In this document: positions 33,248-61,955 of the stretch, piece after piece
How positions within the stretch are numbered: position 1 is the first letter of the stretch
Layout of the letters: the number at the start of each line of letters is the position of its first letter
NCBI GenBank assembly: GCA_020137815.1
Contig: CM035361.1
Span: forward strand, 3,224,001-3,288,000
DNA length: 64,000 nucleotides
Direction: 5' to 3'
From: Hormiphora californensis
Lineage: Eukaryota > Animalia > Ctenophora
Notes under the pieces: generated by a model
What the model saw: the letters and a program-made list of their open reading frames with translations, nothing else
Told to the model about the DNA's origin: nothing
Database searches by the model: none
Made by a program: the position numbers and the translations under genes

Positions 33248-36141
33248 AACAACCACCTTGGAGGCATTGTGGTTAGTGGTTAAACTGGGTTGAAGTGGTT
33301 AGTGAGATGAACGCACAGTATTTGTCGTAGGAAAATGAACTGTCGAACAAAATCAAATCACCAAAAAAATAACCAATAAATGGTGCCGGGACGTTCACTG
33401 TCAAGAAATATAAGTGTACTGCAGTGGCCGCAGCTCGGTAGAAACCAACTTGACTGCTTGAAATGGAAGTGAGATAAAGAATACAGGGGTGAAAACTAAC
33501 ACCACCCGGCGAGATAACAGGTCACATGCGACCTGGTATACGCATTTTGTGACTCCCTGGTCTCACACGTAGTATGCACTATTTTTATCTTTATCCTGAA
33601 GTATAAAATATATAACGTTTCAAGGGCGAATCAAGGAGTGATAAACGTTATCTGGCTTGTGCTGAAATCACGTACTTCACCGGCAGGTACCTGCAGGGTT
33701 AAAAACTGTGCTAAAATACGCTTGTGTCACGGACAGGCATACAGTTCGATACAACCTGGTAATTGTTGTAAAGGCGGAGTACCGGCTGTGAAGGGGGTAG
33801 ACCATGGTGTCTTATCAGATGAAATTAGCCCGAAACTAGAGCAGCTTTTGAATTCGTGACGTCACAGTTCTCCAAGGAACGTTCTCCAGGGAATATATCA
33901 CGGGACTTCACTGATAATGTCGAAAAGTGCAGCTTTTTGGATGACTGTCAAGTTAGATCACCTTCATGCACGTAAATACTTTTATAATGATAAGGAATCT
34001 ACACGGTCCCGCAGGACCTATTTCAAGAAATTTATTCCTGTTTTTTACAAAAGGAATAAAAAATCAAACTCACTTTTTCACCCCTCATAATTGTTTTAAT
34101 AATCCCCATCCCCCACATCTCCAAAAACATTGACGAGTTTTTGTTTTCACCGCTGTAACACGATCGATAGCTCAATACCCTCTTTTCTGAGTTTATCTCG
34201 TCACTGCTGTAACACACAACACCCTCTCAGGATGTAGCCATGTCGGTCAGCAACACAACAAAGCTACTCTCCAAATCCCAACTCTCTCTCTAAGATCGTA
34301 AGTACGAAATGTATACACGTTTGTTGCCTTGTCTGTGTTTGTTTAGTCCTTTCCCAATAATATTAATTCCCTCTTTTCCAAATGATGACAAATACAATGG
34401 AGGAATGGGAATGGGAATTCACAATAAAGTTAGGTCGACCTAGGTCGTGCAATATGAATTCTTCTTTTCCCCCTCTTGTTCATAAAATCCTAAACTCCAA
34501 GGACGGGCTGAATATTACTTCTACTCGATTCGCTCATTTAGTAAGGGAATAATAGTAAATTTTATCCGCAAAATTTTTAACAAGCTCATTTCTTCACCAG
34601 TAGGTCCGGGTAGGTGTCTAGTATGACCAAAAAAAAGATACGATAATCGGAAGTGCGCACACGCACTGAGCGCGCAAAAAGTAAACACATGTAAATACAT
34701 GTTTTTCTAGCCTGGCATGAAAACCCAAAAACCATCTTAGGAGACGAGTAGAGAAAAAATCAAGGGCACTAGATTGTGTAGCGTCCTCGCATTAGTGGGG
34801 GTAGGTGCTGGAATTAAGTCTCTATCTCATCTGGTTAATTAGATAATTGGATAATTAGATATGCACATAACCGTATTTTGGCTATATGGCTATAGCCACT
34901 TAGGAATGGTTTAGAGACTTTTCACTGGTGCCATTTTGTAGGCAATAGCCAAGTTATGGGGAGTCGACGTCGGACTTTTAAGCTATATCTCCAACCGTTT
35001 GGCCGTTATTTGGCTTTAAAGATGCTCAAAATGAGCAAAAACGGTAAAAAGCCCGATTTTGAGCATCTTTAAAGCCAAATAGCGGCTAAACGGGTAATAT
35101 GGTAGTTCTGGGCTGAACACTTTCGACCGCTTTAAAGCGCTTTAAAGCGTTTGAGAAAGCGCTATAAAGCGCTTTAAAGCGCTTTAAAGCGATACCGCTT
35201 TAAAGCGCACCGCTTTAAAGCGCTTTTAAAGCGCTAAAAGCGCTTTATAGCGGTTTTTGTAGCGATATAAAGCGCTTCCGAAAGCGCTTTAAAGCGCTTT
35301 CAAAAGCGCTTTAAAGCGCCACCGATTTAAAGCGCTTTTTTTTGATGGCGAGAAAAAATAAAGCGCTTTAAAGCGCTTTAAAAGCGCTTTTAAAAGCGCT
35401 ATAAAGCGCTTTTCAAAACGCTTTATAGCGCTTTAAAGCGCTTTTAGCGCTTTCAAGCGCTTTTAAGCGCTTTAAAGCGGTGAATATCGCTTTAAAGCGC
35501 TATAAAAAGCGCTTTTAAAAGCGGTGTTGAAAAAGCGCTTTTTAAAGCGCTTTACAGCGCTTTTAAAAGCGCTATAAAGCGCTTTTTAAAGCGCTTTAAA
35601 AAGCGCTTTATAGCGCTTTTAAAAGCGCTGTACAGCGCTTTAAAAAGCGCTTTATATCGCTTCAGAAAGCGTTTATAAAAACGCTTTAAAGCGCTTTAAA
35701 GCGCTTTTAAAAGCGCTATAAAGCGCTTTTAAAAGCGCTTTCTAGAGCGCTTTAAAGCGCTTTAAAGCGCTTTTAAAAGCGCTTTTTAATGCACTATAAA
35801 GCGCTTTAAAGCGCTTCTTATAGCGCTTTAAATAGCGCTTCATAGCGCTTTATAAAGCGCTTTATAGCGCTTTATATAGCGCTTTAAAGCGCTATAAAAA
35901 GCGCTATAAGAAGCGCTATAAAGCGCTTTATAGCGCTATAAAAAGCGCTATAAAGCGCTTTATAAAGCGCTATATAAAGCGCTTTGTAGCGCTTTTTATA
36001 GCGCTATAAAGCGCTTTATAAAGTCTTTTAAAAAGCGCTTTAAAGCGCTTTTTATAGCGCTTTATGAAGCGCTGTAAAGCGCTTTATAGCGCTTTATAAA
36101 GCGCTTTCAAGCGCTTTAAAAAGCGCTATAAAGCGCTTTAA

Positions 36142-37531
36142 GGGTACGCTAACCAAAAATTTTTTTCGAGTGCAGGGAAATCTCTCACCGTTGGGTTGTA
36201 GGCCATGCCAAGGAGACCTCAAATATGCAATTTGAGCTCTCAAGTCGAATTCATATTTTTGCTACAGCTGCTTGAAAAATGAACTGAAAATAAGGTTTTG
36301 GCATCTTAAAAATACATTTGTAAAGATAGGATCATAAAAATTTGTGGATTTGAAAAGGACAAAGAGGTGAGTAGCCACAAAAAATTTTTTTGCAATCCGA
36401 GCTGATTTCCGGTCCTGAGATGGATTTCTTTTTTTCCACTTTAACGCCATATTTGGCAAAGTTCCGAAAACATGTGAAAGCTGTAAATTGGTGAAAAGTT
36501 GCGTCTAACGATTATCTAAGTGGCCATAAATTTTGGGCGTGTCCTTATTTGAGATAAGCTGTACAGAGTTTTTTATGTGAAAGCCGTCATTTCAGAAATA
36601 AATAAATTCCCTGTATCTCAAAAACGGCTGATCGTAGAGACCTGAGACTATGCTTAAACGATTCAGAAGGTCCGATTTTGGGGGGGTCTTCTGAGAGACA
36701 TTTTGCTCCTACTTCAACCGTTTTTGCTGTAATTGCGAAAAACAAATTCTATGAAATGGGCAAAAGCTAAACTCCAATATCCTGTAATTAGGGAATTTTG
36801 GCTAAGAAAGGACCGAAACTATGGAAAAATGTGTAACAAGCTGATTCCTTCACTATTTGGTCCATATGGGTCCCTATAATCACCAAAAACAAAATCACAA
36901 AAAATCCACGATGGCGAAGATGGGTTTTTGTTTTTCGCAATTACAGCAAAAACGGTTGAAGTAGGAGCAAAATGTCTCTCAGAAGACCCCCCCAAAATCG
37001 GACCTTCTGAATCGTTTAAGCATAGTCTCAGGTCTCTACGATCAGCCGTTTTTGAGATACAGGGAATTTATTTATTTCTGAAATGACGGCTTTCACAAAA
37101 AAAACTCTGTACAGCTTATCTCAAATAAGGATACGCCCAAAATTTATGGCCACTTAAATAATCGTTAGACGCAACTTTTCACCAATTTACAGCTTTCACA
37201 TGTTTTCGGAACTTTGCCAAATAGGGCGTTAAAGTGGAAAAAAAGAAATCCATCTCAGGACCGGAAATCAGCTCGGATTGCAAAAAAAGTTTTTGGGGTT
37301 ATTCACCTTCATGTCCTCTTCAAATCCCCAAATTTTCATGCTCCTATCTTTAAAAAAAATTTTTTGAGATGCCAAAAACGTTTTTACAGTTCATTTTTCA
37401 AGCAGCTGTAGCAAAAATATGAATTCGACTTGAGAGCTCAAATTGCATATTTGAGGTCTCCTTGGCATGGCCTACAACCCTACGGTGAGAGATTTCCCTG
37501 CACTCGAAAAAAATTTTTGGTTAGCGTACCC
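36142..37531. mobile_element. Non-autonomous Kolobok-like element
   Basis: TTAA|GGGTACGCTAACC...GGTTAGCGTACCC|TTAA (RR..YY termini, TTAA TSD), ~600-bp TIRs. Confidence 0.85.
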
Positions 37532-38281
37532 TTAAGAAGCGCTTTATAGCGCTTGTTAAAGCGCTCGAAAGCGCTTTATAAAGCGCTTTTTATAGCGCTT
37601 TCTAGCGCTTTATAAAGCGCTATAAAAAGCGCTTTAAAGCGCCTCTTAAAGCGCTTTTTATAGCGCTTTATAAAGCGCTATAAAAAGCGCTTTAAAGCGC
37701 TTTATGAAGCGCTATAAATCGCTTTTTAAAGCATTCTATTCGGTTTTTGAATATTATTGTATGTAAATCCCACTTTTTCGTGATCACTTCCACTCCTTTT
37801 CAGATTAAACTGCGTTTCTGTTGGGGGCGATTATAATTTGGGTGCCTTGCAGCCTGTGTACAGGTGTGCGCTACCAAAAGAGTACACTTAGACCGAGTTT
37901 TTCAAATGTCTATAGTCATGCAACCACAAGGCCAATTTGAGTTAACTAAAGTCTCTTTTTGGGAGAGAGGGAGTGAAAGAGAGGGTACACCACGGAGCAC
38001 AGTTGCAGGTATGATATCCCCTCTTTCTTCTATCCTCCCGCGCTGTCTCTCTCAGTCTCATGTTATCGCGTGCGCTATGTTTAGTTCGGGATGGGGGCGA
38101 GTGAGGGATAGAGAAAGAGGGTATACCATTACCACGGAGGATTTTAATAGGTGCGGCGTTTTCGGGTGTGGCGGGCGCCATGTGAGGTTCACAGCCATAT
38201 CATGATGCTTTTCGGAATTTCTAGGGGGTGTAATTTTTACGCCGTAATCTGGCTGGTGGCTCCGGCTGGTTGAGACACAGT

Positions 38282-39035
38282 GGGGGGTACGTCACCTTTT
38301 TTTTTGCCCACTGCCCACATTATTCTTAAATTTTGAATTTGCCCACATGGGCAAAAGTGGGCAAAAGTAGGCAAAAGTAGGCAAAAGTAGGCAAAAAATT
38401 TAAATCCCATAAAAAATATATGCTATCAACCAGGTAATCGTCTGTGACAAAGGTTTTTCACCACCAATGTCCTCCTAGAGGTCCCCCCTATCGATTCCAA
38501 CCGATAATTTATTTGCTCAGGGTTGATAAGGCTCCATATCCAACTGGGGAAAATGGGCAAAATATGTTGGCAAAATTAGGAAAATTGGTCATTTTAGGCA
38601 CGTTTCTCACATGGTTGGAGTGGAAAATTTTTCTGGTTTTCCTGGGACCCCATTGGAGTACAATGCAAGTGGAAAACCTTTGTTATGTATCAGTTCCCTA
38701 AATAGCCCCAAAATGACGAAAAATCACTGGCCTTTGCCTAATTTTGCCAAAATTTTTTGCCCACTTTTGTCCAGTCGGACATGGAGCCTTATCAACCCTA
38801 AGTCATAAGAAAGTACATTAATTATCGGTTGGAATCGATAGAGGGGACCTCTTGGAAGACATTGGAGGTGAAAAACATTTGTCACAGAGGGTTTTCTGGT
38901 AAAGTTTTGATGCTTATAATATTTTTGCCCACTTTTTGCCCACTTTGCCCACATTATACCTGTTTTTTGAGATTTCAGTTTGCCCATGTGGGCAAATGTG
39001 GGCAAATGTGGGCAAAAAAAGGTGACGACCCCCCC
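38282..39035. mobile_element. TIR element with poly-G termini and 8-bp TSD (MULE/Merlin-like)
   Basis: GACACAGT|GGGGGGTACGTCACCTTTT...AAAAGGTGACGACCCCCCC|GACACAGT. Confidence 0.85.
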
Positions 39036-42000
39036 GACACAGTCTACAGCTAAAACAGTGTAAAGATGTTAGTTATGAGACTTGAATGGTCAATGGTGAC
39101 GTCAGACGTGTGTGTAGCTGGTATCAAGTCAATTGATTGAGAAATACGAATACAAGTGGCAAGTGCTGAGTCATGAGAGCAAGTCGAGAATCTCAACTCT
39201 CAAGACTCAACGGCAGACCGCAGACGGCACTCGGCAGAAGTAAGTGAAAACAAAGAAATGAATTCACTGCCAACTTATATTTGAGTCTGAACGGGCATGT
39301 TCCTTGGGTACGGTGCACCCTCTCTTTTTGGGAAGGGGGTAGGAGAGAGGGAGTGAAAGAGAGGGTACAACACGGAGCACAGCTTATTTGGACATATGCC
39401 GAGTTTTATTAGTGCAAATTTTCCCACGGCCGTGGGAAACTATGAAAGCTTCATGTGATGAGCTCGTTTTACTATAAAAAGCGCTTTCAAGCGCCTTAAA
39501 TAGCGCTTTTAAAAGCGCTTTAAAAAGCGCTAGAAAGCGCTTTTAAAAGCGCTAGAAAGCGCTTTTAAAAGCGCTTTATATAGCGCTTTAAAGCGCTTTA
39601 TATAGCGCTTTTTAGCGCTATTTAAAGCGCTTTTCAGCGCTAGTTAAAGCGCTAAAAAGCGCTTTAAAAAGCGCTATAAAGCGCTCTAAATAGCGCTTTA
39701 TAGCGCCTCGAAAAGCTCTTTAAGAAGCACTTTATAGCGCTTTATAAAGCGCTATAAAGCGCTTTTTAAAGCGCCACAAAAAGCGCTTAAGAGCGCTTTA
39801 TAGCGCTATAAAAAGCGCTTCATAGCGCTATTTAAAGCGCTTTATAGCGCTTTTTATGGCGCTTCAAAGCGCTTTAAAAAGCGCTAAAAAGCGCTTTGAA
39901 AAGCACTTTATAAAGCGCTAGAAAGCGCTTTTAAAAGCGCTTCCTAGCGCTTTTTAAAGCGCTTTTCAAAGCGCTTTTTAGCGCTTTATAGCGCTTTATA
40001 GCGGTTGAAGTAGCACATTTTATATCGCTTTAAAGCGCTTTAAAAAGCGCTTTTTAGCGCTTTAAGAAGCGCTTTTTAGCGCTTTAAAAAGCGCTTTATA
40101 AAGCGCTTTTTAGCGCTATAAAAAGCGCTTTTTAGCGCTATAAAAAGCGCTTTAAAGCGCTTTCTAAAGCGCTTTTTAAAGCGCTAAAAAGCGCTTTTAA
40201 AAGCGCTGTATAGCGCTATAAAGCGCTTTCAAATATGCTATATAAAGCGCTTTAAAAAGCGCTATAAAGCGCTTTGCAGCGCTTTATAGCGCTATTGAAA
40301 GCGATTTCTAGCGCTTTTAAAAGCGCTATAAAGCGCTTTATAGCGCTTTTAAAAGCGCTTTCTAGCGCCATTTAGCGCTTTATAGCGCTTTTAAAAGCGC
40401 TTTCGAAAGCGCTATAAAGCGCTAAATAGCGCTTTAAAGCGATCTGACGAAGCGCTTTATAGCGCTTCATAGCGCTTTTTAAAGCGCTTGCAAAACGCTT
40501 TAAAGCGCTAAATTTTGAAAATAAAGCGCTTTAAATCGGTGGCGCTTTAAAGCGCTTTTAAAAGCGCTTTATAGCGCTTTCGAAAGCGCTTTATATTGCT
40601 TCAGAAACCGCTATAAAGCGCTTTTAGCGCTTTAAAAGCGCTTTAAAGCGGTGCGCTTTAAAGCGGTATCGCTTTAAAGCGCTTTAAAGCGCTATAAAGC
40701 GCTTTCTCGAACGCTTTAAAGCGCTTTAAAGCGGTCGAAAATGTTCAGCCCAGAACTACCATATTACCGCTAAACGGTTAGAGATAGAGCTTAAAAGTCC
40801 GACGTCGACCCCCCATAACTTGGCTATTGCCTACAAAATGGCACCAGTGAAAAGTCTATAAACCATTCCTAAGTGGCTATAGCCATATAGCCAAAATACG
40901 GTTATGCGCATATCTAATTATCCAATTATCTAATTAACCAGATGAGATAGAGACTTAATTCCAGCACCTACCCCCACTAATGCGAGGACGCTACACAATC
41001 TAGTGCCCTTGATTTTTTCTCTACTCGTCTCCTAAGATGGTTTTTGGGTTTTCGTGCCAGGTTAGAAATACATGTATTTACATGTGTTTACTTTTTGCGC
41101 GCTCAGCGCACGTGCACACTTCCGATCATCGTATCTTTTTTTTGGTCATACTAGACACCTATCCGGACCTACTGGTGAAGAAATTAGCTTGTTGAAAATC
41201 TGATCCCTAATGTGTGGAATCCCATACCTGGACTTCTTAGGAACTGTATCAGCTCATCATGATCTGCACTGTTTCCACTCTCTCCTGGCATGAAGCCAAG
41301 TAGCATGCAGGCTCACGCCTAACTACAATTTGCCTTCATGCTGCGTACTTCAGTGCTTCACGCGTAGAGATGATGGCGTGAGGAACGTACGCGTACTGTT
41401 GGGTGTTATTTGCTGAGAGTTCATGATGAGTTGGGGATATTTTTCTTCTTCTGGTTTTTTTAACACACTGTGTATAACGGTTTTTTTTTTTTAATAAATA
41501 ACTCTATTAAAACAGTATAATATTAGTTTGATGCACAGATCTGTAGATAAACAATCAACTGTTATATATCGGGTTGATTCTGTAATTTCCAGAGTCCAGA
41601 CAAAATTTTCTTATCACAAGCTCGTCGAAAGATTACCTGTGATCACTATGCTTCATCAAAACTCAGAAGTTCAACTACCATTCCCAAAATAACAAGCACA
41701 ACGTGTCCTCTCTGTCTCTCTCGTGCTAAATCTAGCTCTATATCGTGTCTGGATTCTCGCTTCTATCTCTATCTTCGATCTCGCGCTATACTAGATCTAT
41801 GATCTACTCTCTCGTCTCTTCTAGAGCGACTCTCCATCTCTCTTCGCGCGAGCGATTGAATTGCGGATCTCTCGCGCGCCTCGCTCCGATAGCTCTCTCT
41901 CGCTACCGCTATCTTTTATCTCTCTTCTCTCTCTCTCTCCTCTGCTCCCCTCTACTCTCTCCTCTCTCTCTCTGATCTTCGCTCCGATACTCTCTCTCTC

Positions 42001-42514: not shown

Positions 42515-43136
42515 AATGGTTGTTCAAATCACATTCTGGGCTTGAGAATAATGCTAAGGATAAATGATAATCACATTGTGGTTCGTACGGGAAGCCGGAA
42601 GGAAAGCAGTTATAAAAACCGAAAAACTGAAAAGCTTTAAACGTTTAAAGTGTTGGTACCAACTAATATTGTTGGAACTGAAAAATTAACGGCTACGTTG
42701 ACCTGTCCTAAGCTTTTTTGACTAACAACCTTTGTCTGAGACGTCTGTCTGAGAGTCTGAAAATAATGATAATAATAATAGTAACAGTTTATATCCCGCA
42801 CTGACACAGTTTATATACAGACAACTCGTTTTCCTTAATTTGAAAGGGACTGCAGTAGACTGCCTGCTCCTAGCACGGTTCTCTGATAACGGTGAGTTAG
42901 TGGGGAACTATCCCACTTGGATAACATTATTACGGATGAAGTAGCAGCCGTCAGGATCTTCTGATCGTATCCTCTTCAAAGTGGACCTTAGATTATTATT
43001 ATTATTATTAAATCTAAAATGTATACATTGGATAAAATACAACATATACTGCCCCTTTTTGTGGGCTAAATTGATAGTCATAAGGTTCCTTTTGAAGTCT
43101 CTTTAGAGTACAAATTAGGGGAGACTTGACCCATAT

Positions 43137-44994
43137 GGTCAGTTTAAAGTACGTCTGTACACTTTTCGGGGTGCCTCAGTCATAATTTTATGACTGCTAT
43201 TACTAAAATCAATGCCCAGCGACATGTGGAGCAATTGAGACATCCAAATTTGGGTATTATAACCCAAATACTATGCTTAATAGTTTCAACCGATCAAATA
43301 CTTCATGGTCCAACCGATGTGGAGCCTATGACGAGGAGAAACCAGGCTTTAATGAAATCTCCATAGAGAAATAATCATAAATTATTTTTCATATTTTTTT
43401 AACCAAATCCATTAGCAATCAATCAAGGAATCCACACACCCCCGGTTGGGCCGGTTTTGACGCCCAACCTATGTGGAGCAATCATGAAAAGAGTGACTGA
43501 TTTTCGAAGTTCTATTTAGCTAAAATAATGAGCAAATTTTTACGACCTTACGACGGGAATATATTCGAAAACATTCAACTTATTGAACTTAGTAGCGTTT
43601 TTAAGTTTTACGAGCCCAACCAGAGTGGAGCAAATTTTTAAGTGAGTAATAGGGAAAATAAAATCACAAAATTGATTTTTACTGCCATTGTTTCAAATTT
43701 ATAGTCACCAGATATCATATAAACTGTTGTACTTGCTATTTACTAACTATAAAAATGATTTCCATTCAAAAATGGATGGCCCAACCGAGTGGATCCTTAG
43801 TTTTAAGTAAGGAGTTTCGAAATTGTTAAATTAAATAATATTGAAGCATATTAACGAATATTTTATCATTATTTCATCGAAGGGTATAGCAATAAACAAT
43901 TTGAACTAGTAAACAATGCGAAATATCCAGCCCAACCGTGTGGAGCACTGAAAAATAGCCTATGAGGGGCCTGTAAGTTTATTTAGATTAATCCTACCCA
44001 TTATTGCCCTATAGCTCCTCATGGTTGGGCACAGATATATCAAGAGGCTCCACATGGTTGAGATATTGTCTAACAAGCCAATAAATGGCCTAAAATTGAT
44101 TAAATCTCGATTTGTATCGTGGTTCAATCATTTAAAGTTCATTTCCAATACAGAGTGCTGCATGCATGGCGCTCAATAAGTGTTAGATCCACACTGGTTG
44201 GGCCGATTTTCAGGTTTTAATTATTTTATAAGTGCACATAATTGGTTATAAGAGCAACCCATAATGAATTCAGGGAATTAAACTCAATGTCCAACCGTGT
44301 GGAGTGTTTTGAATCGTTTAAAACCACTTTGCTCCACACAGTTGGGCCGAATAACACTTCAGCATGCTCCACAAGGTGGAAACATACATCATCTCCGATA
44401 TTATTGACACAGAATGATACTATTTTACATTATAGTGGAATTTTAACCAAGTATTAAAAGAATTTAGTAGTTAATAAATCTTTAGATTTTAGTCCACCTT
44501 TTTCAAAAGCCAGCTCCACATCGGTTGGGCAGTTTTGAGTATAAAATTCAAGTCTAAAAAATCAAAAATTGCATAGAGTTAACTCTTGTGAAAATCGCAT
44601 GATTCTATCGGAACGTTACACCCCGGTTGGGCCAGCTTGAAGCCAAAAATTTGGTCAAAATTGCCCAGCTCCACATTAGTTGGGCCTCCATTTCGGAAAA
44701 AAAGTGTCAGAAAATATTCGTCTTATTAACTAGATGCTTCAATAAAAAAACCAGAATTTTAGAAATTAAAATGTGGCCACTACAGCCCTGCTCCACAAAA
44801 AATGTGCTCCACAAAAGTTTGCACTAGTATCTCCGGCTCCACAACAGATATTGACTTCGTTCCTTCAGATAATGATCATTTATTAACTTTCTGACCAGAT
44901 AAAGTATTGAGAATTCTCTACACAATTAGTTATCATATCAACAAGCCTGTTTGTAAAATTTTGCTAATTTGTACAGACGTACTTTAAACTGACC
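43137..44994. mobile_element. 1.86-kb non-autonomous TIR element, 4-bp TSD (Sola-like?), inserted in the pogo left TIR
   Basis: ATAT|GGTCAGTTTAAAGTACGTCTGTACA...TGTACAGACGTACTTTAAACTGACC|ATAT. Confidence 0.85.
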
Positions 44995-45961
44995 ATATGG
45001 AACACTTGCCCAAATGGAATTTTTCTCTTGGGAGCCCAATATACGATTTTCAAGATTACTTCACCCTGGAATGTGATACAAATAGGCTCAGTACCATTTC
45101 CAGCCCTTGTAACTACCCATTGGACAGTCAATGAAATTTTTGGCGAACGAAAAAAACCAACAAAAAAAAACTAGAAATTTTGCCAGTCTGATACCATTTA
45201 TTTTGTGCACCCATGTTTACCGAACCAAAATCTATCGTACAGGAGTTGGACTTCAGACTTTGTTACAGCATATCTCGTCGATTTATTTTACATTAAACAG
45301 TTAACTTGGTAGGAAATCACTAAAACCTGAAGATACCCAATTTTGGTCAAATGGCATACTTTTTTGTATCAATATGGAATATTCCATTTGACCAAAACTT
45401 ACTATACCATTTTGGCAAAGTTTTACGTATTGCGCGTAATTTAATTAAGTTATCTGCTTTCCTGAGCCGCGCAGCACGGCAAGTCATTAATGAACCTTTT
45501 TTTAAATTTTCAAAATTTGGAAGTCATTTTGATCACGCTAGCCGGCAGAAAAAAGAATTTCTGTACTACCCTGGTGGGTCGTGTTATTTATTTCCGTACT
45601 ACTCTTTCTGATCCTGCGGTGTTGGGTTGTTGTTTCCGTACAACTCTGGCTGCTCCTGTTCTATAGTTAATGATACCATATTTCTTATTGCTACTATCCC
45701 GGATGTTCGGTGAGCTATCCCGCTTGTCATCCGGAAATCCAGTTTTGTTTATGTGCGGGAGAGAGATAGTGACGATAGCTAACACAACACTTGCCCTGCG
45801 TGCTTTTATTATTATTTGTAGATTCGTTGTTCCGGTTGTTCTGCTCTTTTTTGCATACCACTTCAAGCTGAACATATTTTGATTGGTTAATTGATTTATT
45901 GATTGATTGATCGGTGTGTTAATTCTGCAATTAACGTCTTCTATATATTAGAATCTGCTAG

Positions 45962-46177
45962 ATGCCGCGAACAACTCGCCCCTGTAACCACTGGATGTGT
46001 GGAAGGTGTAAGCTAGTTAACCGGGGGTCAGGGATCAAGTGTACTCGTTGTGGGGAGCTGAAGAAAAATGGCACGAGTTTGGAAAAGAGAGCAGGAGATT
46101 GGTTGTGTAGTTGTGGGGAGAACAACTTCCGTTGGAGGATAAACTGCTATCGATGCGACCTTCCAAAACCCCATTAG
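45962..46177 (+). CDS. 71-aa protein with two RanBP2-type zinc fingers, inside the pogo element
   Basis: WMCGRCKLVN....IKCTRCG and GDWLCSCGENNFRWRINCYRCD.PK; intronless. Confidence 0.75.
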   Translation: MPRTTRPCNHWMCGRCKLVNRGSGIKCTRCGELKKNGTSLEKRAGDWLCSCGENNFRWRINCYRCDLPKPH

Positions 46178-46239
46178 ACAATAATTCCTCCCTACTGCAG
46201 TCGTAATTCCATCACAGTTTATTACACCCGTCATCCATC

Positions 46240-47186
46240 TAGTAGAGTCGATAAGAACACTCACCTCCTCCGATTTCAGTAAAACTTCTCACATGCTAAA
46301 ATATGATAATGGAGGTACAAATACCGCTTATTTTAGGTCCAAAAAGTTTTTGGTTCGTTAATTATCGCTAATTGAAAAACGCCAAAAATGGGCTAAAATG
46401 GCCCTTAAGGTGGATTTGAAATTTTGGAGTTGGAACTCCAGACTTCGTACAGGTGTCCGCTAGGATGCCAATATGCACCACAGGCGGGCTCAGGCCTAAA
46501 TTCGTCCGAATTTTTGCGTAAGACCGGATGGCGTAAATCTTGGTCACGTGACCTCGGCTAACTTCTGAACCGCTCAAGTAAGGGATGTTTATAACCTGCT
46601 TAATCGATGCAGAATATGATGAAAATGACACGTTTTGACATCATTTTTCATCCCAGACGCACAGGAAAGACACAAATCGCCTTACAAAATTGACGCCATC
46701 TAGTCTCCCGCTCTTTTTTTGCAAAACTCTAACTTCTGAACCGTTGAAGTAAGGGAGGTTCATAGCCTGCTTAATCGATGCAGAAAGAAAAATAAATGAG
46801 AGGAAATGGCCTTATTTTTCATCTCCGGCGTGCAGGAAAGGCACAAATAGCAAAAAACTGATTTTTTGCCCAAATCACGTGACCAAAATTCACGCCATCC
46901 GGCCTTACGCAAAAATTCGGACGAATTTAGGCCTGAGCCCACCTGTGGTGCATATTGGCATCCTAGCGGACACCTGTACGAAGTCTGGAGTTCCAACTCC
47001 AAAATTTCAAATCCACCTTAAGGGCCATTTTAGCCCATTTTTGGCGTTTTTGAATTAGCGATAATTAACGAACCAAAAGTTTTTCGGACCTAAAATAAGC
47101 GGTATTTGTACCTCCATTATCATATGTTAGCATGTGAGAAGTTTCACTGAAATCGGAGGAGGTGAGTGTTCTTATCGACTCTACTA
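46240..47186. mobile_element. Palindromic Academ-like MITE
   Basis: ATC|TAGTAGAGTCGATAAGAACAC...GTGTTCTTATCGACTCTACTA|ATC (TAG termini, 3-bp TSD). Confidence 0.85.
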
Positions 47187-47313
47187 ATCTGTTTGTACTG
47201 CATTTTTAATCATTTTATTTCGGTTGAAGGTTGATTGTCTCAATGGTGTCCCTAACCTTACCCACTCCAATCTATTAAATGTAATCTCTACCTATCTCTC
47301 TCTCTAGCACTCC

Positions 47314-50300
47314 ATGGCACCAGTTTATCGGTATAACAAACGTTCAAGAACAACATCCCGTCAGTCATGGTCTCCAAATAGTATGAAGTGCGCCATCGCC
47401 GCCATCCACAACGGGGCATACGGGTATGATAGAGCGTCCAAGATTTATAATGTGCCGAAAGCCACGCTTTTTAGGAGGGCCAAAGGTACAAACAAGGTTG
47501 CCAGTGGAGTCCAAAAGGTTCTTGGTTCGGGGAGAACAGTGCTTACACGCGATATGGAGAAGAAATTAGCCGGCCATATATTAAAGATGGAGGAGATGCT
47601 ATTCGGTTTGGGGATTCGTGATGTCTGTCGGTTGGCGTACGAGTTAGCTGAACGAAACGGCCTGGCCCACAAATTTAATCGACGGACCAAAATGGCAGGG
47701 TACCATTGGTTTTATAGTTTTATGAGTAGGTTTCCTCATCTGTCGGTGAGAAAACCTGAATCTGTATCAGCTCAAAGGTCCCGATCTTTCAGTAAGAAGA
47801 ATGTTGACGAATTTTTTCATACGTACAAGATACTTCTGGATAAGGTCAAGTTTCTGGTCGTTGCGAGGATTTTTCACAAATTTTCATTTAGATATTTTAA
47901 TATGTTCCTATGATGACTGGTACTCATAATACCACTAGACCGGTGTACAATTGTTTACTCTAAATTTCTGTGAAAACTAGAACTCAATTGCTTGCTCTAA
48001 AGCAAAGTTATAGCCGTTTTAACACGTGCGGAGCAAAATTGTGCGGAGCCCCCTCTGGAGGTGATGTTTTCATCCTTTCTCCATGAAATTTTTGTATATG
48101 TTTAATCAAATTATTTCTACATATACTGTTTAAAAATGAAAAGTCGGGAACTCAAATTGTGCGGAGCACATCGATTTTTGTGGCAAATCTTACTCATTGG
48201 GGTTACTTACATTGACTTAACATTTTATTTATAAACTATTTGATTCTAGAGACATTTTAGGAGCTCATGGAGTCATCAGCTGGATCAATAAGTTTACTCA
48301 AATTAGTGTGGAGCCGATTTTTCCATATAACCAAAATATAGTCGTTGGCCGATCTGTAGTAATACTTCCAAATAGAGTAATAAGTCAAAAAGTATTAGGG
48401 GTAGCTTCTTTAAATAAGTGAATTAATTTGGCAAAACGATAGTGGAGCAAGATTCTTGTATATTTCGAAGATACTAACTCAAAATATGTGGAGCAAATAC
48501 TGATTTTTTGACAAAAACTGCTCCACATCGTTTGAGTTGCGGTTAAACCGGTTCTTGATTTAAAAAATTAGTTGTGCAGATAATTGGGTACCAACAACTT
48601 ACCATTTCAACCAGAAAAAGTTACTCAATTTGTGTGGAGGAGCCCCTAAAGGAGCCGTATCTGTGTCCAGACAGTCACAAAATTCGCCCAAAACCTTATG
48701 GCATGCCCTGTTTCTGATTCTCAGAGAGGAAAATCATTGCTCCCCTAGTTTTGAGTAAAGCTATACTAATGCTTGGTTAAATTATAACTAATATTTGGTT
48801 AAATACTCAATTGGTTGTAGTATAACTCGATTTATCAAGGCCAAAGCAACTGATGGTATTCCATGGTTTTATGTGTAATTGCTCCACACAATTTGAGTCC
48901 CATGATTAGGCAATATTATTACTGTAATATTATGGTCTGATGAACGTTATTTTGATGCAAATAAAACTTATTCTGTTATTATTCAAGGAGATAATTTATA
49001 CTGCGAAAATGGAGGGGGAAATCATGTTTTGCTCCACAAATTTTGAGTCATAAGATTAAATTACTGATAAAATAAGTACTGGTATGTTATTGTTGCCACT
49101 TAGCATACGTTTTTAGTTTGATTGCTTGTGAATTGAACCCGCAAAGTATCGAAGTAAAAAATAATAATTTGGACCCATGAATATAACACCTGCTCCTCAC
49201 AATATGAGCATATCAGGGTACATTTTTTTAGCATGGATACTTATTTTTAACATTTAGGAAAGGAGTTCGATTAATTTTAGAATCTAAAATTATGTTTATC
49301 TTTCCTCAAATGGGCAATAAAAAAGCTTCCCCTTCAAGCAGCTCTGGCTCCGCAAATTATGAGCAAATCGTTACTCATCGGTAATCACGGTTTAGTTTCA
49401 TAAATTATCTTAATATTTAAAAAGGTCCTACTGCTAAACTGATAAAACCTAAAAATCCAGAGAGCATTTAGCATCGTTGGGCTTGGGCTCCACATTATTT
49501 GAGTTTAAGTTCTAAAACGCATGTAGTATACTAATTTAAACATATTTACATAAGTATACTAAATTTTATGTTGATTCAAGTACTCTAAGATGTCCTAATA
49601 AAGGTTTTAAAAATTTTGGTGGAAAATCCAACACCAACTTTTCCCAAAATCCTCGCAACGACCAGAAACTTGACCATAAGCATTCGTTTCCACCCCACCT
49701 CATTTTCAATATGGATGAAAAGGGTGTAAGTACGGTTCCAAACTGTCCTCCTAAGATTATAGGCATGAGGGGTAAGAAACAGGTGGGAACAATGACAAGT
49801 GCAGAACGGGGAGTTAACACCACCGTTGTCGTATGTGGGAACGGGTCTGGAGAATTCATACCGCCGTATTTCATCTTCCCCCGTAAAAAGAAGAATCCAG
49901 AGTTCATGAAAAATGCTCCACAAGGTTCTGACTATCACGCCGAGACCTCTGGTTGGATGACCTATGAGGGGTTTAATCAATGGTTGAAATTCTTTATCGC
50001 AAGAGTCGGATGTACGGTGGAGAGGAAATGTTTAGTTATCCTTGATGGCCACATAACACATGTGAACAGCATAGCGGCGATTGAATTAGCAAGAGATAAT
50101 GGAGTGGAGCTCCTGAAATTTCCGCCACACTGTACACATAGAATGCAGCCCATGGACGTAACTGTGATGGGGCCTCTACAGACTGGATTTGCGAAACATT
50201 GTGCACTCTGGATGAGACAAAATCCTGGTTCCCAGATTAGTATTTACCAAATAGCTGAACTATTCGGGAAAGCTTTCGAGGGAACACGAATGACAGGAAA

Positions 50301-52970
50301 TTTAGCGTCCGGATTTAAAAAGTGTGGCATATGGCCGGTAAAGGAGGACATATTTGAAGGACAGTATGTGACAGCCCATCAGAACCCCTCAACAAGTGCC
50401 TTACCCCTGGGCCCTGGGCATCAGTCTGCCTCCGATCTCTCATCTGATGAAGGACATCCGGACACCAATTCCATTGACCCAGCAGACATAGTACCCCTTC
50501 CCACCATCACCTACAGTGGTGAAGGAAAACAACGGAGGAGAACCAACAGCAGTGCTGGTTCAGTGGTAATCACCAGTAGCCCGCACTTGAACAAGCTGAG
50601 ACTAGAGGACGAGAACCGGACCTTAAAAGAAGAGGTTAAAAGATTAAAAAGAGAACTGAAGGGTAGCAAGAAGACAATCCCCGATACCGACACGAGATCA
50701 GGAAAATCCTACAAGTGCAAGGCACGGGTGAGGAAACAACCACCTGCCGTGAACAGTAACACTGACGATGATCTCCCTCCTGTATCTCCAGTCCCACCAG
50801 GTAGGAAAAGAAAGTGTAAATGATAACTGGGTGTGAAGATTTACAGTTTTAATTCAATTCCATTCCTTTTTCACAACTCACGCCCCCTCCAGGTACAAGC
50901 AAGGGCAAGGCACGGGCCAGAAAACAACCACCTGCCGTGAACAGTAACACTGACGATGATCTCCCTCCTGTATCTCCAGTCCGACCAGGTAGGAAAAGAA
51001 AGTGAAATGATAACTGGGTGTGAAGATTTACAGTTTTAGTTCAATTCCATTCCTTTTTCACAACTCACGCCCCCTCCAGGTACAAGCAAGGGCAAGGCAC
51101 GGGCCAGAAAACAACCACCTGCCGTGAACAGTAACACTGACGATGATCTCCCTCCTGTATCTCCAGTCCGACCAGGTAGGAAAAGAAAGTGTAAATGATA
51201 ACTAGGTGTGAAGATTTACAGTTTTAATTCAATTCCATTCCTTTTTCACAACTCACGCCCCCTCCAGGTACAAGCAAGGGCAAGGCACGGGCCAGAAAAC
51301 AACCACCTGCCGTGAACAGTAACACTGACGATGATCTCCCTCCTGTATCTCCAGTCCCACCAGGTAGGAAAAGAAAGTGAACTGAAAACTGGGTGTGAAG
51401 ATTTACAGTTTTAGGCCCCTGTCTACCCTAATTCTGTTCCATGCATTTTTTACAACTCACGCGCACGTCCCTTCCAGTTACCGGCAAGTGTAAGGTACAA
51501 GCCAGGAAAAAGCTAACTTATCCCCCGAATCTCGACGATAATCTCCCTCCTGTATCCCCAGTCCCACCAGGTAGGAAAAGAAAGTGTAAATGATAACTAG
51601 GTGTGAAGATTTACAGTTTTAATTCAATTCCATTCCTTTTTCACAACTCACGCCCCCTCCAGGTACAAGCAAGTGCAAGGCACGGGCCAGAAAACAACCA
51701 CCTGCCGTGAACAGTAACACTGACGATGATCTCCCTCCTGTATCTCCAGTCCGACCAGGTAGGAAAAGAAAGTGAAATGATAACTGGGTGTGAAGATTTA
51801 CAGTTTTAGTTCAATTCCATTCCTTTTTCACAACTCACGCCCCCTCCAGGTACAAGCAAGGGCAAGGCACGGGCGAGGAAACAACCACCTGTCGTGAAAA
51901 TTGACGATAATCTCCCTCCTGTATCCCCAGTCCCACCAGGTAGGAAAAGAAAGTGAAATGATAACTGGGTGTGAAGATTTACAGTTTTAGGCTCTAGATC
52001 CGGTTTAAGTTAACTGGGTGTGAAAATTTACAGATTTAATTCAATTCCATTCTTTTTTCACAACTCACACCCCCTCCAGGTACAAGCAAGGGCAAGGCAC
52101 GGGCGAGGAAACAACCACCTGTCGTGAAAATTGACGATGATCTCCCTCCTGTATCTCCAGTCCCACCAGGTAGGAAAAGAAAGTGAAATGATAACTGGGT
52201 GTGAAGATTTACAGTTTTAGGCTCTAGATAGTAGATCCGGTTTAAGTTAGTTAGATCACACCCTGGTAAATGATAACTGGGTGTGAAGATTTACAGTTTT
52301 AATTCAATTCCATTCCTTTTTCACAACTCACACCCCCTCCAGGTACAAGCAAGGGCAAGGCACGGGCCAGAAAACAACCACCTGTCGTGAAAATTGACGA
52401 TGATCTCCCTTCTGTATCTCCAGTCCCACCAGGTAGGAAAAGAAAGTGAAATGATAACTGGGTGTGAAGATTTACAGTTTTAGGCTCTAGATAGTAGATG
52501 GGGGGGGGGGGGGTTCCAACCTATTTCTTGTATGTTTGTACAAAAATATACAAAAAAGTACAAAAAAATAAAAACAGTTTTATATGGTAATTTACCATTA
52601 CTAGCGCACCCATTGGGTGCGCCTCAAGTAAGGGCTTTTTGATAACCTATCCGGCTTCGCCGGGTGGTTCTTTTCGCCCCTTTTACCGTCAAAAACATGG
52701 TTGCCATGGCAACTGAATTGGTAACTATGGGGACTGGCGTCTTAAAATTCATTCGAAAATATAAACAAACTTCGACTGGAAGTTCCAAAAATGTAAACAA
52801 CAGCTTTGCAGCTTTGTGCACACAAAGTATTTTATGAAGGAGCAGTCTGTCGCGTAGATACCGCCTAACGAACGACCACTTCGACGTTCATCTCCAAATT
52901 ATAATAGAGACTAGAAAGCCCGTTGGTTGGACCCCGTTGATGTCTCTCTCTCCATCTCTCTCTCTTCCCC

Positions 52971-53051
<81 letters not shown>

Positions 53052-53330
53052 ACTCTCTAACTTCATCTCTTCATCATATCCGTGTCGGGCTGAAGAATAT
53101 GGAGGTTGGTAGAGTGACAGGGATGGTGATGCTAGAAAGCCCGTTGGATGGACCCCGTTGATTGATTGAACTCCGTTGATATCTATCTTTCTCTATCTCT
53201 ATTTTTCTCCATGTATCTCTCTATCTCGCTTTCCCTCTATCTCTCTATCTCTCTCGCTCTATTTAGCTCGCTGTCCCTCTATCTCTCTCGCTCCATCTCT
53301 CTCAGCTCCCTCTATCTCTCTTTGTCTCTA

Positions 53331-53419
<89 letters not shown>

Positions 53420-54496
53420 ATCATGTCGGGCTGAAGAATATGGAGGTTGGTAGAGTGGTAGGGATGGTGATGAATATCAAGGGTCTTTGTTAGATGGCTG
53501 CTTGAAACATGCCGAATTAGGTGATAAACATCTGTAGAATTGTAGCTGTGTAGAGTAATTATCGGGGGTACGTAGGTAGAATAGATCTGGAAATCATCGG
53601 GGCAGCAACAGTAGATGCCATCACACCTCAAAACACCGCAGGAACACACAACAAACAACCAACAACATGCACGTGCAGTATTCAAACCCTTGCCCACCAA
53701 CCATAACAACCCCTTGATTTGCACGGGCAAATGGGGCAAATTGTTGCACGCTAGTGTTGCAAGCTAGGATACTATTTCTTACCGAGAAAATTTTCTCGAA
53801 TCGTATTTTCTAAGCGAGAAATTTCCCCGAATCGCAATTTCTTACCGAGAAATTTTTCTCGAATCGTATTTTCTAAGCGAGAAATTTCCCCGAATCGCAA
53901 TTTCTTACCGAGAAAATTTTCTCGAATCGTATTACAAAAAAATACAAAAAAATAGGTTGGAACCCCCCCTAGTAGATCCGGTTTAAGTTAGTTAGATCAC
54001 ACCCTGGTAAATGATAACTGGGTGTGAAGATTTACAGTTTTAATTCAATTCCATTCCTTTTTCACAACTCACACCCCCTCCAGGTACAAGCAAGGGCAAG
54101 GCACGGGCCAGAAAACAACCACCTGCGATGAACACTGACAATTTTCCTGCTGCTCAAGATAGAGTTTATCCACAGAGTTTGAGACCCGGGCAGTTTGTTC
54201 TGGTCAAATTCGATGTAAAAGATGGGGCATGTCATTACGCCGGTTTTACTCGGGAAATGGTCACTTCTGAAGGAATCGAGATCAAGTTTCTGCGACGGGT
54301 TAGACGGGCTATAAACCCGTCTCGTACGAAACTAAGATTTGAGTACCCTTGCGAAGAAGATATTAAAAGGGTACCAGCGAAAGACATTGTGATGGTGCTG
54401 CAGGTACCGGAAGTGAGGCCGACATCTAGCAAGAGGATTTCAAGCCAGTTGATATTTGATGACCATAGATTTGAACATTTCTTCCCAATCTACTGA
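47314..54496 (+). CDS. pogo-family transposase (HTH-psq, CENP-B HTH, DD36D), interrupted at 47844-49679, then 8 repeat exons and terminal exon 54084-54496
   Basis: Removing the insert gives LLDKHSFPPHLIFNMDEKG. Catalytic motifs NMDE/LDGH/QPMD. C-terminal GQFVLVKF...YAG...IKFLRR...FEYP..ED domain. Confidence 0.88.
47844..49675. mobile_element. 1.83-kb non-autonomous TIR element, 4-bp TSD, related in design to the 43137 element
   Basis: ATAA|GGTCAAGTTTCTGGTCGTTGCGAGGATTTT...AAAATCCTCGCAACGACCAGAAACTTGACC|ATAA. Confidence 0.9.
50705..52490 (+). repeat. Tandem ~188-bp intron+exon units of the transposase
   Basis: Repeated CCACCAG|GTAGGAAAAG...CCCCTCCAG|GTACAAGC. Confidence 0.9.
52500..53969. 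mobile_element. TIR element with poly-G termini and 8-bp TSD, in the last transposase intron
   Basis: TAGTAGAT|GGGG...TTCCAACCTATTT...AAATAGGTTGGAACCCCCCC|TAGTAGAT. Confidence 0.85.
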
Positions 54497-55687
54497 ATTT
54501 CTATTCCTATTTTATCTTTTTTAGATATTGAAAACTGTTGTCGTAATAGTATTAGCAGGGGCCATTCAAAAGGGACGTCCGTGATTTTTGTTCATTTTTC
54601 GACCCTCGGCCTCCATCCCCTTGTCCGAGTTTCGTGCACAATGCACACTCTCGGTCGAATTTCCCCTCTCCCTACCCTCGGACGTCAGTTTTGAATGGTC
54701 CCACAGTAAATAAAAGAGGGAGGCAAATAAACTGGCTGTAACAGTTCGTGTTCCACGTTCGCGTGTGTGTCCCACTTTCGTGTCTGACCTGTCCTTCGTC
54801 CGAATTCACCATCAGTAACGCGCTGAGGAAATGAACCAATCAAAGTTCATGTGCGCCATGTGTGGGTGCGCCTTTTTAGGAGGCGCGTTCGTTTGTTCCC
54901 GGGAACCAGATGCGTTTAGTCCATACCTTCTGTGTTTGTTATCGTTTTTATCCATGTTTGTACCTCGTTGGGTTATGGGAAGGGCCCAGTGAAGATGAAA
55001 ACAGTGCAGGTTCATTTATATGATGGTGCCGTAACCGTTTAACTCATTGGGATAGTTTTAAGGTCAAATGGGATAGGCCATATTGGCAAAACATTTGGTC
55101 ATATGGGATATCCCATTTTGCCAAAATGGACTATCCCATTTAGCCAAATAAATGCTATCCCGTATAACCTAATTTTTAAAACGCTGTACATTTTTTTTCC
55201 CAAATGGAATACCAGCATATCTCTACTAAGGGCTTATTTTAAGCTTTAAATGACACATTGGGGAAATAAAATGAATGATTTAATGACCATCTACCAAAAA
55301 ATTTTAGGTATTAGACTAAATCGTTGAACAGGACAGACCTAAACAAGATAGTGGTTCATATGGGTCAAGTCTCCCCTACATGTAGCAGGTCAGCCACATT
55401 TAATTACCCCCCTGCTAACCCAGTATCGTCCATTCGGATTGTCTCGCCTCAGTCCTTTCACTGTATCAACGAGAGTTTTCCGCTCTCGCTGCTCCTCCGG
55501 TGTTAGGTCGGGGGAGAGAAACACCGAGGAGAATTTCTCTGAATCTCGGAGCTGTTTTGCTTTTCTTAGAAGTTGTAACAAAGTTTCCCTCCTTTCAAGT
55601 GTAACAATTACTGGTCTCGGTCGGTTATCAGTCTTTACCTTAGAGCTTTTTGCTCTTTCAGTTCAGAGGGCGTAAGATCCGGAGAGA

Positions 55688-57514: not shown

Positions 57515-60500
57515 TTATCGGCAGGATGGGTTTAGAATCTTGGCCTTCGATTTACGTGGTTGAGTCACTGTGTTCGTACCACTGTTACTATCTGGATAAG
57601 CGACGGTGAAAAGATGAGTTTTCAACATTTGCTTGAAAGTTTCAAGAGATGATACTTCTCTTAGGCTTTTAGGTAGTTTGTTCCAAATCTTAGGTCCGCA
57701 TACACTGAACGCTTTCTGAGTGGTAAGATATTTTGTATCATGGCGTTTTTCCACTAGGGTTAGGTCATCATCAAGACGAACTTTTCTGGCCTTCGGCTGT
57801 CTGCGCATAATCATGTCTGACAGATACTCAGGCACAAGTCCATGTATACATTTATAGACCAGGAGGCAGACTTTGAAAACGATTCTTTGCTCGACCGGAA
57901 GGAAATGAAGTTTCTTCCTCATTTCAGTAACTCCTCGCTTTCCTTTCGATCCATAGATAAATCTAGTGGCACTGTTTTGCACTTTTTGTAGTCGTTGCAA
58001 ATCCCGTTTTGAAAGTCCAACGAGTAGTCCATTACCAAAATCTAGCCTTGAGTGAACAAGTTGATGTACAAGTTGAGTCTTTAGCTGTACAGTGAGTCCT
58101 TTCCTGATCCTCCATAGATTTGCCAGCTGGCTCCAACACGACTGGATAACTCGGGACACATGGGATGACATTGAGAAGGTTTGGTCAAACCAGACACCTA
58201 AATTTCGAGCTTCTGTGGATGGTTCAGTCGGGATTTTGTCACTCTTTTGCAGGAAGATCGATGTCGGATTAGGTGACTTGTCTGCTTTATTGTTGATCAC
58301 GACAATTTCGGTTTTACCTGAATTTAGCTTTAGATAGTTAGCTTTCATCCACCATTTGATGTGTTGAAGGCAGTCTTGGATTTTCTCAAAAATGATGTCC
58401 TCATTGGCTGGATCAAAGCTGATATACAACTGGGTATCATCTGCATACATGTGCACGTGTAGCCCATAGATACCTGCAATGTCTTGAATCTCTCGTGTAT
58501 ACATAATAAAGAGGATGGGACCCAAGATTGATCCTTGAGGGACACCTATCTCGATTTCGATTGAAGGAGACATTTCATCTCCTGTATCAACCGAAGACGT
58601 TCTACCAATCAAGTAGGATTTGAACCACTTTAAGGCCGTCTGCTTGATGCCATAGTAATTATACAGCTTGTCTAACAGAGTGGTATGTTTAACAGTATCG
58701 AAAGCTGCGCTTAAATCAAGCAACAGTAGAATCACTTTTGATTTGCTATCCATCAACAGAAGAATGTCATTGAAGATCTTAAGTGTCGCTGTCTCACAGG
58801 AATGATACTTCCGGTAGGCCGATTGCTTGGTGGGCAAGAGCTTGTTTGCTTCGAGATATTCAATCAGTTGTAATGAAGCGCATTTTTCAACAACTTTTGA
58901 GACAAAGCTAAGGTTGCTTATCGGCCTATAACTGTTTAGTTCCTCAGAATCCAGATCCTTACCTTTAAACGACGGACGGATGATGGCTTCTTTGAAGACT
59001 TTTGGAAATACACCTTTTGTTAAACTGTCGTTAACAATCCGTGATAACACAGGTATAAGCTCAGGAAGTGCGTCACTGACCATACTTGAAGGCATTGGAT
59101 CCAGAGAACAATGCTTCTTGTTCATATCACGAATAGTTCTGGCCAGTTCCTCATCGGTCACAGGTCTAAACTTAGTAAGCGATGATGTACAGGTTATTGG
59201 TTCAGGTTGAGTTGTTGGGGTTGGAACATCCTCAGCCTCAATCACAGAGTATATTTTTGTTACTTTAGCTTTGAAGAACTCGTTGAATCTGGTTGCTAGT
59301 GGAGTTGCTTCCTTTTTTGATGGCAGTGTTGAAGGTGTTTTTTCCTTTCCAAGCAAACTGTTGACCACTCTGTGTGTAGATTTCGGGTTTCCTTTTACTC
59401 GTTCTAGTTTTTTACTGACAAAACTAGCTTTGGCATTACCAAGAACTTTGGATGCGAACTTGCTGGTGCTTTTCCAACAGTGGTATTTTAAGACAAGTTT
59501 CTTAGGATTTGTCTTCTTTAGACGAGCACGTCTCCAGCGTCGTTCGGCTCCTCTACGTATTCGACGAGCATTTTGGCAAGTAGGCGTTCTTATCCATTGG
59601 GGTTGGTCTGGGTGCTTTATCCTCTTTTCTTCTTCAGGGGCAACTTTGTCTGTGATGGACTGGAGAGTTCTGTTGTATAGCACAACACATTCTTCTTGGT
59701 CGGCTGGAAGCGCTTCAGAAAGTTTGGAGTTTCTAATGAGTTCACGAAGATTCGCTGGGTCAACTTCTTTGAAATTTCTGCATTTTTTCAATACTTCGTC
59801 GTCCTTCATCTTTAGTGGTATTCCTGCTGTGCACTTTACTAAATAGTGGTCTGGGGCAGGAGGCACAGGGTATGACTCTATTTCAGTTACTTCAATTCCA
59901 TCTGGCATTCCATGAAATAAATGTGGAATGTGTTCTTCATTTATTTCGTCAAGTTTGCTGCTGCGGAACGGGGCACCAATGGTGTCAGAGAGTGGGGCAA
60001 TATCCTGGGTAAGGATAAGATCCAGTGTGCCTCCTTTGATGTGGGTCGGTCCAGTTACTTTATTTCTCCAACCAAACTGGTTCAGAAGTTCATTGAATTT
60101 TCGCGTTTGGGGATCTAGGTTGTCCTCGACATGAATATTGAAGTCTCCACATATTAAACAGCGCTCTTTCCTCTCTGCTAATTTCAGAAAAAGATCCTCT
60201 AGTTCATCTAGAAACGCAGTAAACTGGCCCGAGGTGCCAGGCCGGTACACTACAACTATCCTGGTATTAGTAGGTTCTTTGAGGAGAACCTCAAGGCATT
60301 CGAACTGCTTAAACTTGTGACAATACTTACTTGTTTTCGTCCTCCTTCTGGTAACTAAAGCTACACCACCTCCTCTACCTACACGTGGATGTGATACTAT
60401 GTTGAAACCTGCTTCTTTGAAAAGAGCACAGAGAGCACCATCGTCCTTTTTCATCCATGTTTCTGTTAGTGCAAAAGCGTCTAAGTCTTCATCTACTGCA

Positions 60501-61890: not shown

Positions 61891-61955
61891 GACTATCGAT
61901 GTCGGTTTTCGTGTTATCTGCCCTTCGGGGCGGTCACATAGCATTCATCTTCCTG

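Follow-up and report, generated by a model that had tools for sequence, protein, structure and literature searches.

A pogo-superfamily transposon in the window (the whole stretch of DNA analysed, 64,000 nucleotides) carries, inside its terminal inverted repeats (TIRs), a 71-codon open reading frame (ORF) for a microprotein with two RanBP2-type zinc fingers. Does this ORF belong to the transposon as a second gene and, if so, what might its product do? In our main reading, to which we give a probability of about 0.5, it is an intact accessory gene carried by the pogo element, with a second finger predicted to bind GG-containing RNA and thereby likely to influence processing of the element's own transcripts.

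We assigned the element to the pogo superfamily on its transposase domains (PF03184, E=1.4e-19; PF05225, E=7.2e-7), its perfect 20-bp TIRs and the TA found on both sides; target duplications in the superfamily are TA, TAA or TAAA. Cutting out four nested inserts by coordinates, every one flanked by a target duplication of its own, leaves an element of 6133 nt. The element, its ends and its inserts are as follows.

43118–55376, forward strand: pogo-superfamily DNA transposon with 20-bp TIRs, TA flanks, and HTH_psq and DDE_1 domains
43118–43137, forward strand: 5' TIR, perfect 20-bp inverted repeat with TA on its outer side
55357–55376, reverse strand: 3' TIR, perfect 20-bp inverted repeat with TA on its outer side
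43137–44994, no strand assigned: nested non-coding insert in the 5' TIR, 4-bp duplication ATAT
46240–47186, no strand assigned: nested MITE with TAG ends and a 3-bp target duplication ATC
47844–49675, no strand assigned: nested insert that splits the transposase in the window copy, 4-bp duplication ATAA
52500–53969: further insert, within the last predicted transposase intron

The arms of the MITE at 46240–47186 are 322 nt long and 96% complementary, and it is putatively Academ-like. The inserts at 43137–44994 and 47844–49675 are each about 1.85 kb, with GGTCA ends, 4-bp A/T duplications and a common, multiply repeated internal GCTCCAC motif; they are presumably Sola-like. The insert at 52500–53969, which is presumably Merlin-like, has an 8-bp duplication, G-run termini, CT microsatellites and a 31/32-nt tandem repeat. 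The 3' region of the pogo element also contains, at 54558–54702, a 145-nt MITE-like element with imperfect inverted ends.

The rest of the window holds several other features. A large inverted repeat (34573–41199; 79% over 1.6 kb) is filled with a palindromic AAAGCGCT satellite and encloses a nested inverted repeat at 35938–37739. A LINE on the reverse strand (57515–61944) has a 1034-residue endonuclease and reverse transcriptase frame with a zinc-knuckle frame upstream. Two reverse-strand frames with ephrin-receptor-like cysteine repeats (PF07699; 18334–18963 and 31133–31528) are probably exons of a host gene.

The ORF and its two fingers lie on the same strand as the transposase.

45962–46177, forward strand: gene for the 71-residue two-finger RanBP2-type microprotein, with no internal stop
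45992–46051, forward strand: finger 1 (W11–C30), which lacks the aromatic and arginine RNA face and has a family-specific loop
46097–46156, forward strand: finger 2 (D46–C65), FUS-like, keeping D46, F56, W58 and R59

Two stretches of the ORF match PF00641 (E=1.5e-8, 34.2 bits against the Pfam cut-off of 27), and both fingers fit the consensus W-x-C-x2-4-C-x3-N-x6-C-x2-C, a motif of which not even one arose in 5000 base shuffles of the 1241-nt leader. With the inserts removed, 982 nt separate the ORF start from the left end of the element, and without the MITE at 46240–47186 its stop lies 186 nt before the transposase ATG. This bears out the sequence-only reading, which had placed an intact 71-residue ORF inside the TIRs, on the transposase strand and about 190 bp upstream of the transposase start. 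The AlphaFold model of the microprotein reached a pLDDT of 73.6 in one of five models and 32–46 in the other four; a Foldseek search with it returned nothing at E 0.001. The ESM Atlas gave only generic RanBP2 clusters (at most 0.90), with a recognition value under its threshold.

The microprotein has relatives of the same build. A phmmer search against 1.84 billion representatives gave 1275 matches at E 0.001, and the best 150 of these were mostly multi-finger proteins, with two end-to-end matches among them, P0162 (69 residues) and P0072 (a tandem double). A profile search (7 matches from 605 candidates) added P0210 and P0211; a word-based search with the ORF alone found no match. P0162, P0072/P0203, P0210 and P0211/P0215/P0216 are 42–57% identical to the window microprotein and have in common with it the MP start, the length, the linker pattern, a ninth cysteine (C8) and the finger cysteines, one of which is substituted in P0211 and retained in its cluster mates P0215 and P0216. 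On the family profile the best non-family protein scored 52 bits, the members' own scores of 117–125 bits being circular. Since four proteins at 42–57% identity share start, length and cysteine pattern, the 71-residue ORF is, on sequence grounds, a real gene of a conserved stand-alone protein family. These members are ENA proteins, known from protein sequence rather than from genomic context, and none of their listed contigs (for P0162, the longest of three listed) corresponds to a contig of the cluster of P0205, the closest full-length transposase. In P0072/P0203, two near-identical whole units (97% alike) stand in tandem and make a four-finger protein.

Two other origins were considered and rejected. 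Judged on the best 150 of the 1275 phmmer matches, the fingers are unlikely to be fused to the transposase: the ORF ends in its own stop, P0205 begins at the same methionine as the window's transposase, and family members end near residue 70, except for the P0211 cluster with its 33-residue tail. A viral origin was set aside after IMG/VR gave only an 11-residue and a 19-residue match and no relative of the transposase.

Whether the ORF travels with the element was followed in public sequencing runs, 20 of 24 of which contain the leader or part of it. Seven were compared in detail, and one of X1, X5 and X9 is possibly the window's own source. In X1 (organism A), a single 2094-nt contig consists of 45890–46236, 47187–47839 and 49676–50760, skipping both intervening inserts; its depth of 57 is alike over ORF and transposase, and it ends where the repeat array starts. 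Over 45890–46236 it differs from the window at four positions, two of them listed, with only T46059C (L33P) in the ORF; the two unlisted differences presumably lie at the start of the contig, outside the ORF. X5 (organism B) covers 45657–46239 with no differences, the whole ORF being identical, and X9 (organism B, different study) covers 45985–46233, again with none. A second X9 contig bridges 33 nt of the ORF's 3' flank to the transposase, and contigs of both X1 and X9 are missing the MITE at 46240–47186 as well as the insert at 47844–49675. In X14 (metagenome), X15 and X17 (both RNA) the ORF is uncovered, and its absence from these contigs is no evidence.

The ORF belongs to the element family because the X1 contig carries ORF and transposase together without the inserts, and we consider it very probable that it is a fixed part of the window's pogo family. 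The earlier proposal of an accessory gene that travels with the element is upheld by these runs: the ORF is present and intact in X1, X5 and X9, lies on one contig with the transposase in X1 and is identical in X5, in lineages that are only about 98% alike. Between X1 and the window, the ORF shows one change in 216 nt, a non-synonymous one, and the transposase part of the contig shows 35 in 1738 nt (Fisher p=0.08), a comparison of close copies only.

Other X1 and X5 contigs represent derivatives of the element. At a loose end in X1, position 45488 is joined to the sequence at 55017, which marks an internally deleted derivative; therefore both element ends belong to one family. Loose contig ends in X1 and X5 join the 5' TIR directly to the leader, and X5 contains a longer pogo derivative extending to about 45683. 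Summed depth in X1 at the element's 5' end (44999–45250) is 50,000–77,000, against 57 over the ORF, a difference which suggests that the window's pogo has given rise to a MITE family of very high abundance.

A small host gene, or a coding part of one, could instead have been captured and carried without benefit, its conservation reflecting selection on host copies; we regard this as somewhat unlikely. In its favour, the finger gene was missing from 36 of 36 distant pogo loci (metagenomes, 30–47% identity), which showed no motif and no profile match below E 0.1, so pogo transposition does not need it. The homologues' lack of a known transposon context and the non-significant excess of ORF conservation within the element also suit a passenger. 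Against it stand the intact ORF in all three DNA runs that cover it and the lack of a second, diverged ORF copy (at least 80% likeness) among those listed in X1, where contigs can drop rare variants. Any capture would be old, because X1 lists no such copy and ORF depth equals transposase depth. Near-identical homologues also occur on several contigs, one of them as the tandem double, which fits a mobile gene or repeated sampling. Upstream ORFs in the distant loci, including a 102-residue ORF with eight cysteines in locus L002, were discarded as non-coding read-throughs without the motif.

Returning to the accessory-gene reading, we compared the fingers with those of known function. The closest solved structure is the FUS finger (E=2.8e-5), followed by those of RBM10 and RBM5, all matching finger 2. 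In the numbering of PMC6384913, finger 2 has D46 at position 4, F56 at aromatic position 17, W58 at 19 and R59 at 20. At positions 14 and 24, where asparagines recognise the U of GGU, finger 2 instead has E53 and Y63; the portion of PMC6384913 available connects such a replacement with less strict recognition of the third base. Finger 1 has H10, R21, S23 and G24 at the RNA-face positions and none of the binding residues. GG-containing RNA is accordingly a predicted ligand of finger 2 alone, with no ZRANB2-like pair, because finger 2 keeps the RNA face and finger 1 has none.

The microprotein might act through protein contacts (as a transposase partner, by binding Ran or the nuclear pore, or in counter-silencing) rather than on RNA, which we judge improbable. 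Such a role would suit finger 1, which has no RNA face and whose nearest matches, weak ones at E about 0.01, are to the Ran-binding fingers of Nup153 and RanBP2. Its family loop type occurs in none of 784 other fingers fetched; helper proteins are, moreover, encoded by other DNA transposons, as the available text on VANC describes (PMC5735166). It sits less well with the D4, F17 and R/K20 of finger 2, kept in six of six aligned family units. The Foldseek matches, every one above E 0.3, fail to discriminate among Ran-, ubiquitin- and RNA-binding fingers and so do not favour it.

The target of an RNA-binding finger could lie in the transposase gene, whose predicted parts are listed here.

47314–47843, forward strand: N-terminal part of the transposase (HTH_psq)
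49680–50800, forward strand: DDE part of the transposase (DD36D)
50801–54083, forward strand: tandem intron–exon repeats with nine CAG|GTAGG donors and eight in-frame exons of 90–96 nt (predicted splicing)
54084–54496, forward strand: predicted last transposase exon, with a C-terminal domain common to P0205 and P0002

Once the inserts are removed, the transposase reads open through HTH_psq and DDE_1. Its linker has grown by tandem duplication of a unit of about 188 nt, intron plus exon, and inclusion of all eight repeat exons would give a predicted transposase of more than 900 residues. The C-terminal domain (54086–54493) is about 100 residues long and has no Pfam match; several other transposase relatives end in a Cys/His-rich, PHD-like tail (for example P0006). 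P0205, a single called protein of 683 residues, is 56% identical; it can be aligned over its full length and has no counterpart of the repeat block. A tree of 48 of 50 rows (two were dropped for short alignment, and no reference Fot sequences were included) unites the window's DDE domain, P0205 and two proteins of Pleurobrachia bachei in a clade with 100/100 support, which makes a ctenophore host likely. DD36D occurs in 25 of the 48 rows and a spacing of 35 in 18, five rows not being parsed. P0001 and P0002 are pogo-type transposases in Pleurobrachia bachei.

ZRANB2-like splicing regulators combine two RNA-binding fingers with an RS domain. According to the part of PMC6384913 available, ZRANB2 is a proposed reader of AG GUR 5' splice sites, and the sequence-only reading had suggested that the microprotein regulates splicing of the AG|GUAGG repeat exons in this manner. 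The donors and exons do exist: the element has nine AGGTAG sites, clustered in the repeat region and found nowhere else in it, and all repeat exons are in frame. The regulatory part of that proposal fared poorly, and we consider it very improbable. The microprotein has one RNA-type finger and no RS tail, with the third-base residues N14 and N24 changed; AGGTAA does not occur on the element's sense strand; and the nine donors are copies of one duplicated donor. Skipping an exon would merely alter the length of a low-complexity linker, and, as a more indirect argument, the repeat block is missing from P0205.

That the ORF is an independent retrocopy or arose by chance within the element, as a short, intronless frame might, is hardly credible and largely refuted: a check for its own target duplication or tail found no flanking direct repeat of at least 9 nt and no downstream A run longer than 3, the motif appeared in none of the 5000 shuffles, and the ORF occupies the same position in another lineage (X1) and belongs to a conserved family.

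How, then, might an accessory gene in this position be expressed? The sequence before the transposase ATG contains four candidate processing signals.

45710–45715, forward strand: candidate 5' splice donor (G|GTGAGC, motif scan) for an intron in the 5' UTR
45945–45961, forward strand: predicted splice acceptor whose final TAG adjoins the finger ATG
47274–47279, forward strand: ATTAAA, possibly the poly(A) signal of the finger mRNA, a motif present in 567 of 5000 shuffles
47288–47307, forward strand: predicted acceptor, a tract with pyrimidines at 15 of 17 positions followed by TAG; the transposase ATG comes 6 nt later

A transposase start was mapped in 19 of the 36 distant loci, with at least 450 nt upstream in 15 of the 19. 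YAG lies no more than 12 nt from the ATG in 17 of these 19 (10 of 12 distinct contexts), a count that has no shuffle control, and directly before it in 8 of 12 distinct contexts. Because YAG lies so close to the transposase ATG in 17 of 19 mapped loci, elements of this pogo group seem as a rule to have an intron in the 5' UTR. For the finger gene, dropping one base brings five residues of the read-through upstream of P0215 into agreement with the window's upstream sequence, a post hoc observation equalled in 1 of 1500 shuffles and a hint that the acceptor before the gene is conserved. The read-through upstream of P0210, by contrast, showed no match to this acceptor region, its score being reached by 1412 of 1500 shuffles.

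RNA support for the ORF comes from one 155-nt contig over 46067–46211 (depth 7.6) in X16, one of three RNA runs. This contig may be DNA carry-over, because X16 also contains the element's 5' end. X17 has transposase pieces at low depth (2–4), and none of the three RNA runs showed a splice or other RNA joint linking the finger gene and the transposase. We infer that the two genes are co-transcribed, and alternative use of acceptors, in cis or by spliced leader, is a likely route of expression for both, because the relatives' transposase ATG usually follows an acceptor and here both ATGs do. In a ctenophore, at least 56% of full-length reads carry a spliced leader, as stated in the accessible part of PMC8527503.

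On the two-acceptor proposal, the finger gene would have been placed in what is, in related pogo elements, a 5' UTR intron, and one upstream promoter would feed both genes. Use of the acceptor at 45961, in cis or by spliced-leader trans-splicing, would yield the finger mRNA; the transposase mRNA would result when the acceptor at 47307 is used. The two products would be alternatives, because each mRNA would come from its own acceptor, and the ATTAAA at 47274, a short way upstream of the second acceptor, could mark the end of the finger mRNA. More speculatively, the microprotein may feed back on acceptor choice or on transposase mRNA stability and so tune transposase output. The fullest version of the accessory-gene reading, a ctenophore-associated pogo clade that has long carried an intron-nested gene for an RNA-binding microprotein working as an autoregulatory switch at the splice acceptors, is in our estimate doubtful. 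If true, the locus would be a two-gene pogo element that is autoregulated at the RNA level.

Few accessory proteins of DNA transposons are known, and a conserved second gene whose product has a finger predicted to bind RNA would extend them by a helper that works at the RNA level. With a 71-residue protein and two acceptors, the locus would offer a small, tractable system for two-gene transposon expression in a host that trans-splices spliced leaders; should the finger gene be no more than a passenger, it still brings to light a microprotein family that had no name. Ctenophores have been surveyed for Tc1/mariner/pogo elements, and those surveys could mention the window's family. A literature search on RanBP2 or accessory proteins together with transposons, in which most subscription journals lay outside the search, found no pogo passenger gene of this kind, and the available part of PMC10027918 contained nothing on the finger gene.

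The pogo survey PMC7386202, as far as its available text goes, provides the closest comparison. Like the HTH_psq-type pogo elements described there (Fot/Fot-like and unclassified clades), the window element has short type 1 TIRs (at most 40 bp), a TA duplication, and HTH_psq and DDE_1 domains. Fot/Fot-like elements are almost all DD35D, with four DD36D exceptions allowed (PMC7386202), a pattern from which the window's DD36D transposase deviates. Pogo elements are described with one or two ORFs that encode the transposase and none that is separate and upstream (Table S1 of the survey could list related elements), whereas the window element has such a gene. At 6.1 kb without inserts, it also exceeds the range of 1.2–5.2 kb given in that text (PMC7386202) because of its repeat array. 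In the same text, pogo is listed as absent from Ctenophora (PMC7386202), a published absence on which the transposase clade with two Pleurobrachia bachei proteins bears.

Finger 2 shares with the fingers of FUS/EWS/TAF15, RBM5/RBM10 and ZRANB2 (6g99, 2mxv, 1n0z; PMC6384913, available part) the consensus, D4, the aromatic residue at 17 and R20, and its W19 is as in FUS and EWS. Unlike those proteins, the microprotein is 71 residues long, has no RRM, RS or RGG region and carries a ninth conserved cysteine.

The second protein of Harbinger is a transposon helper that acts on DNA or chromatin and is unrelated in sequence to the microprotein; the zinc-finger protein of the ciliate TBE elements is large and kinase-like, not a RanBP2 microprotein. 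TBE, an element of the IS630-Tc1-mariner group, resembles the window element in having extra ORFs, including one for a zinc-finger protein, and differs in its clade, its ciliate hosts, its three ORFs and its telomere-like ends, according to the portion of PMC7325037 available. VANC of VANDAL is likewise a second gene in a DNA transposon that potentially aids its element (PMC5735166, in part); it acts on DNA or chromatin and is unrelated in sequence, whereas the role of the window microprotein is predicted at the level of RNA.
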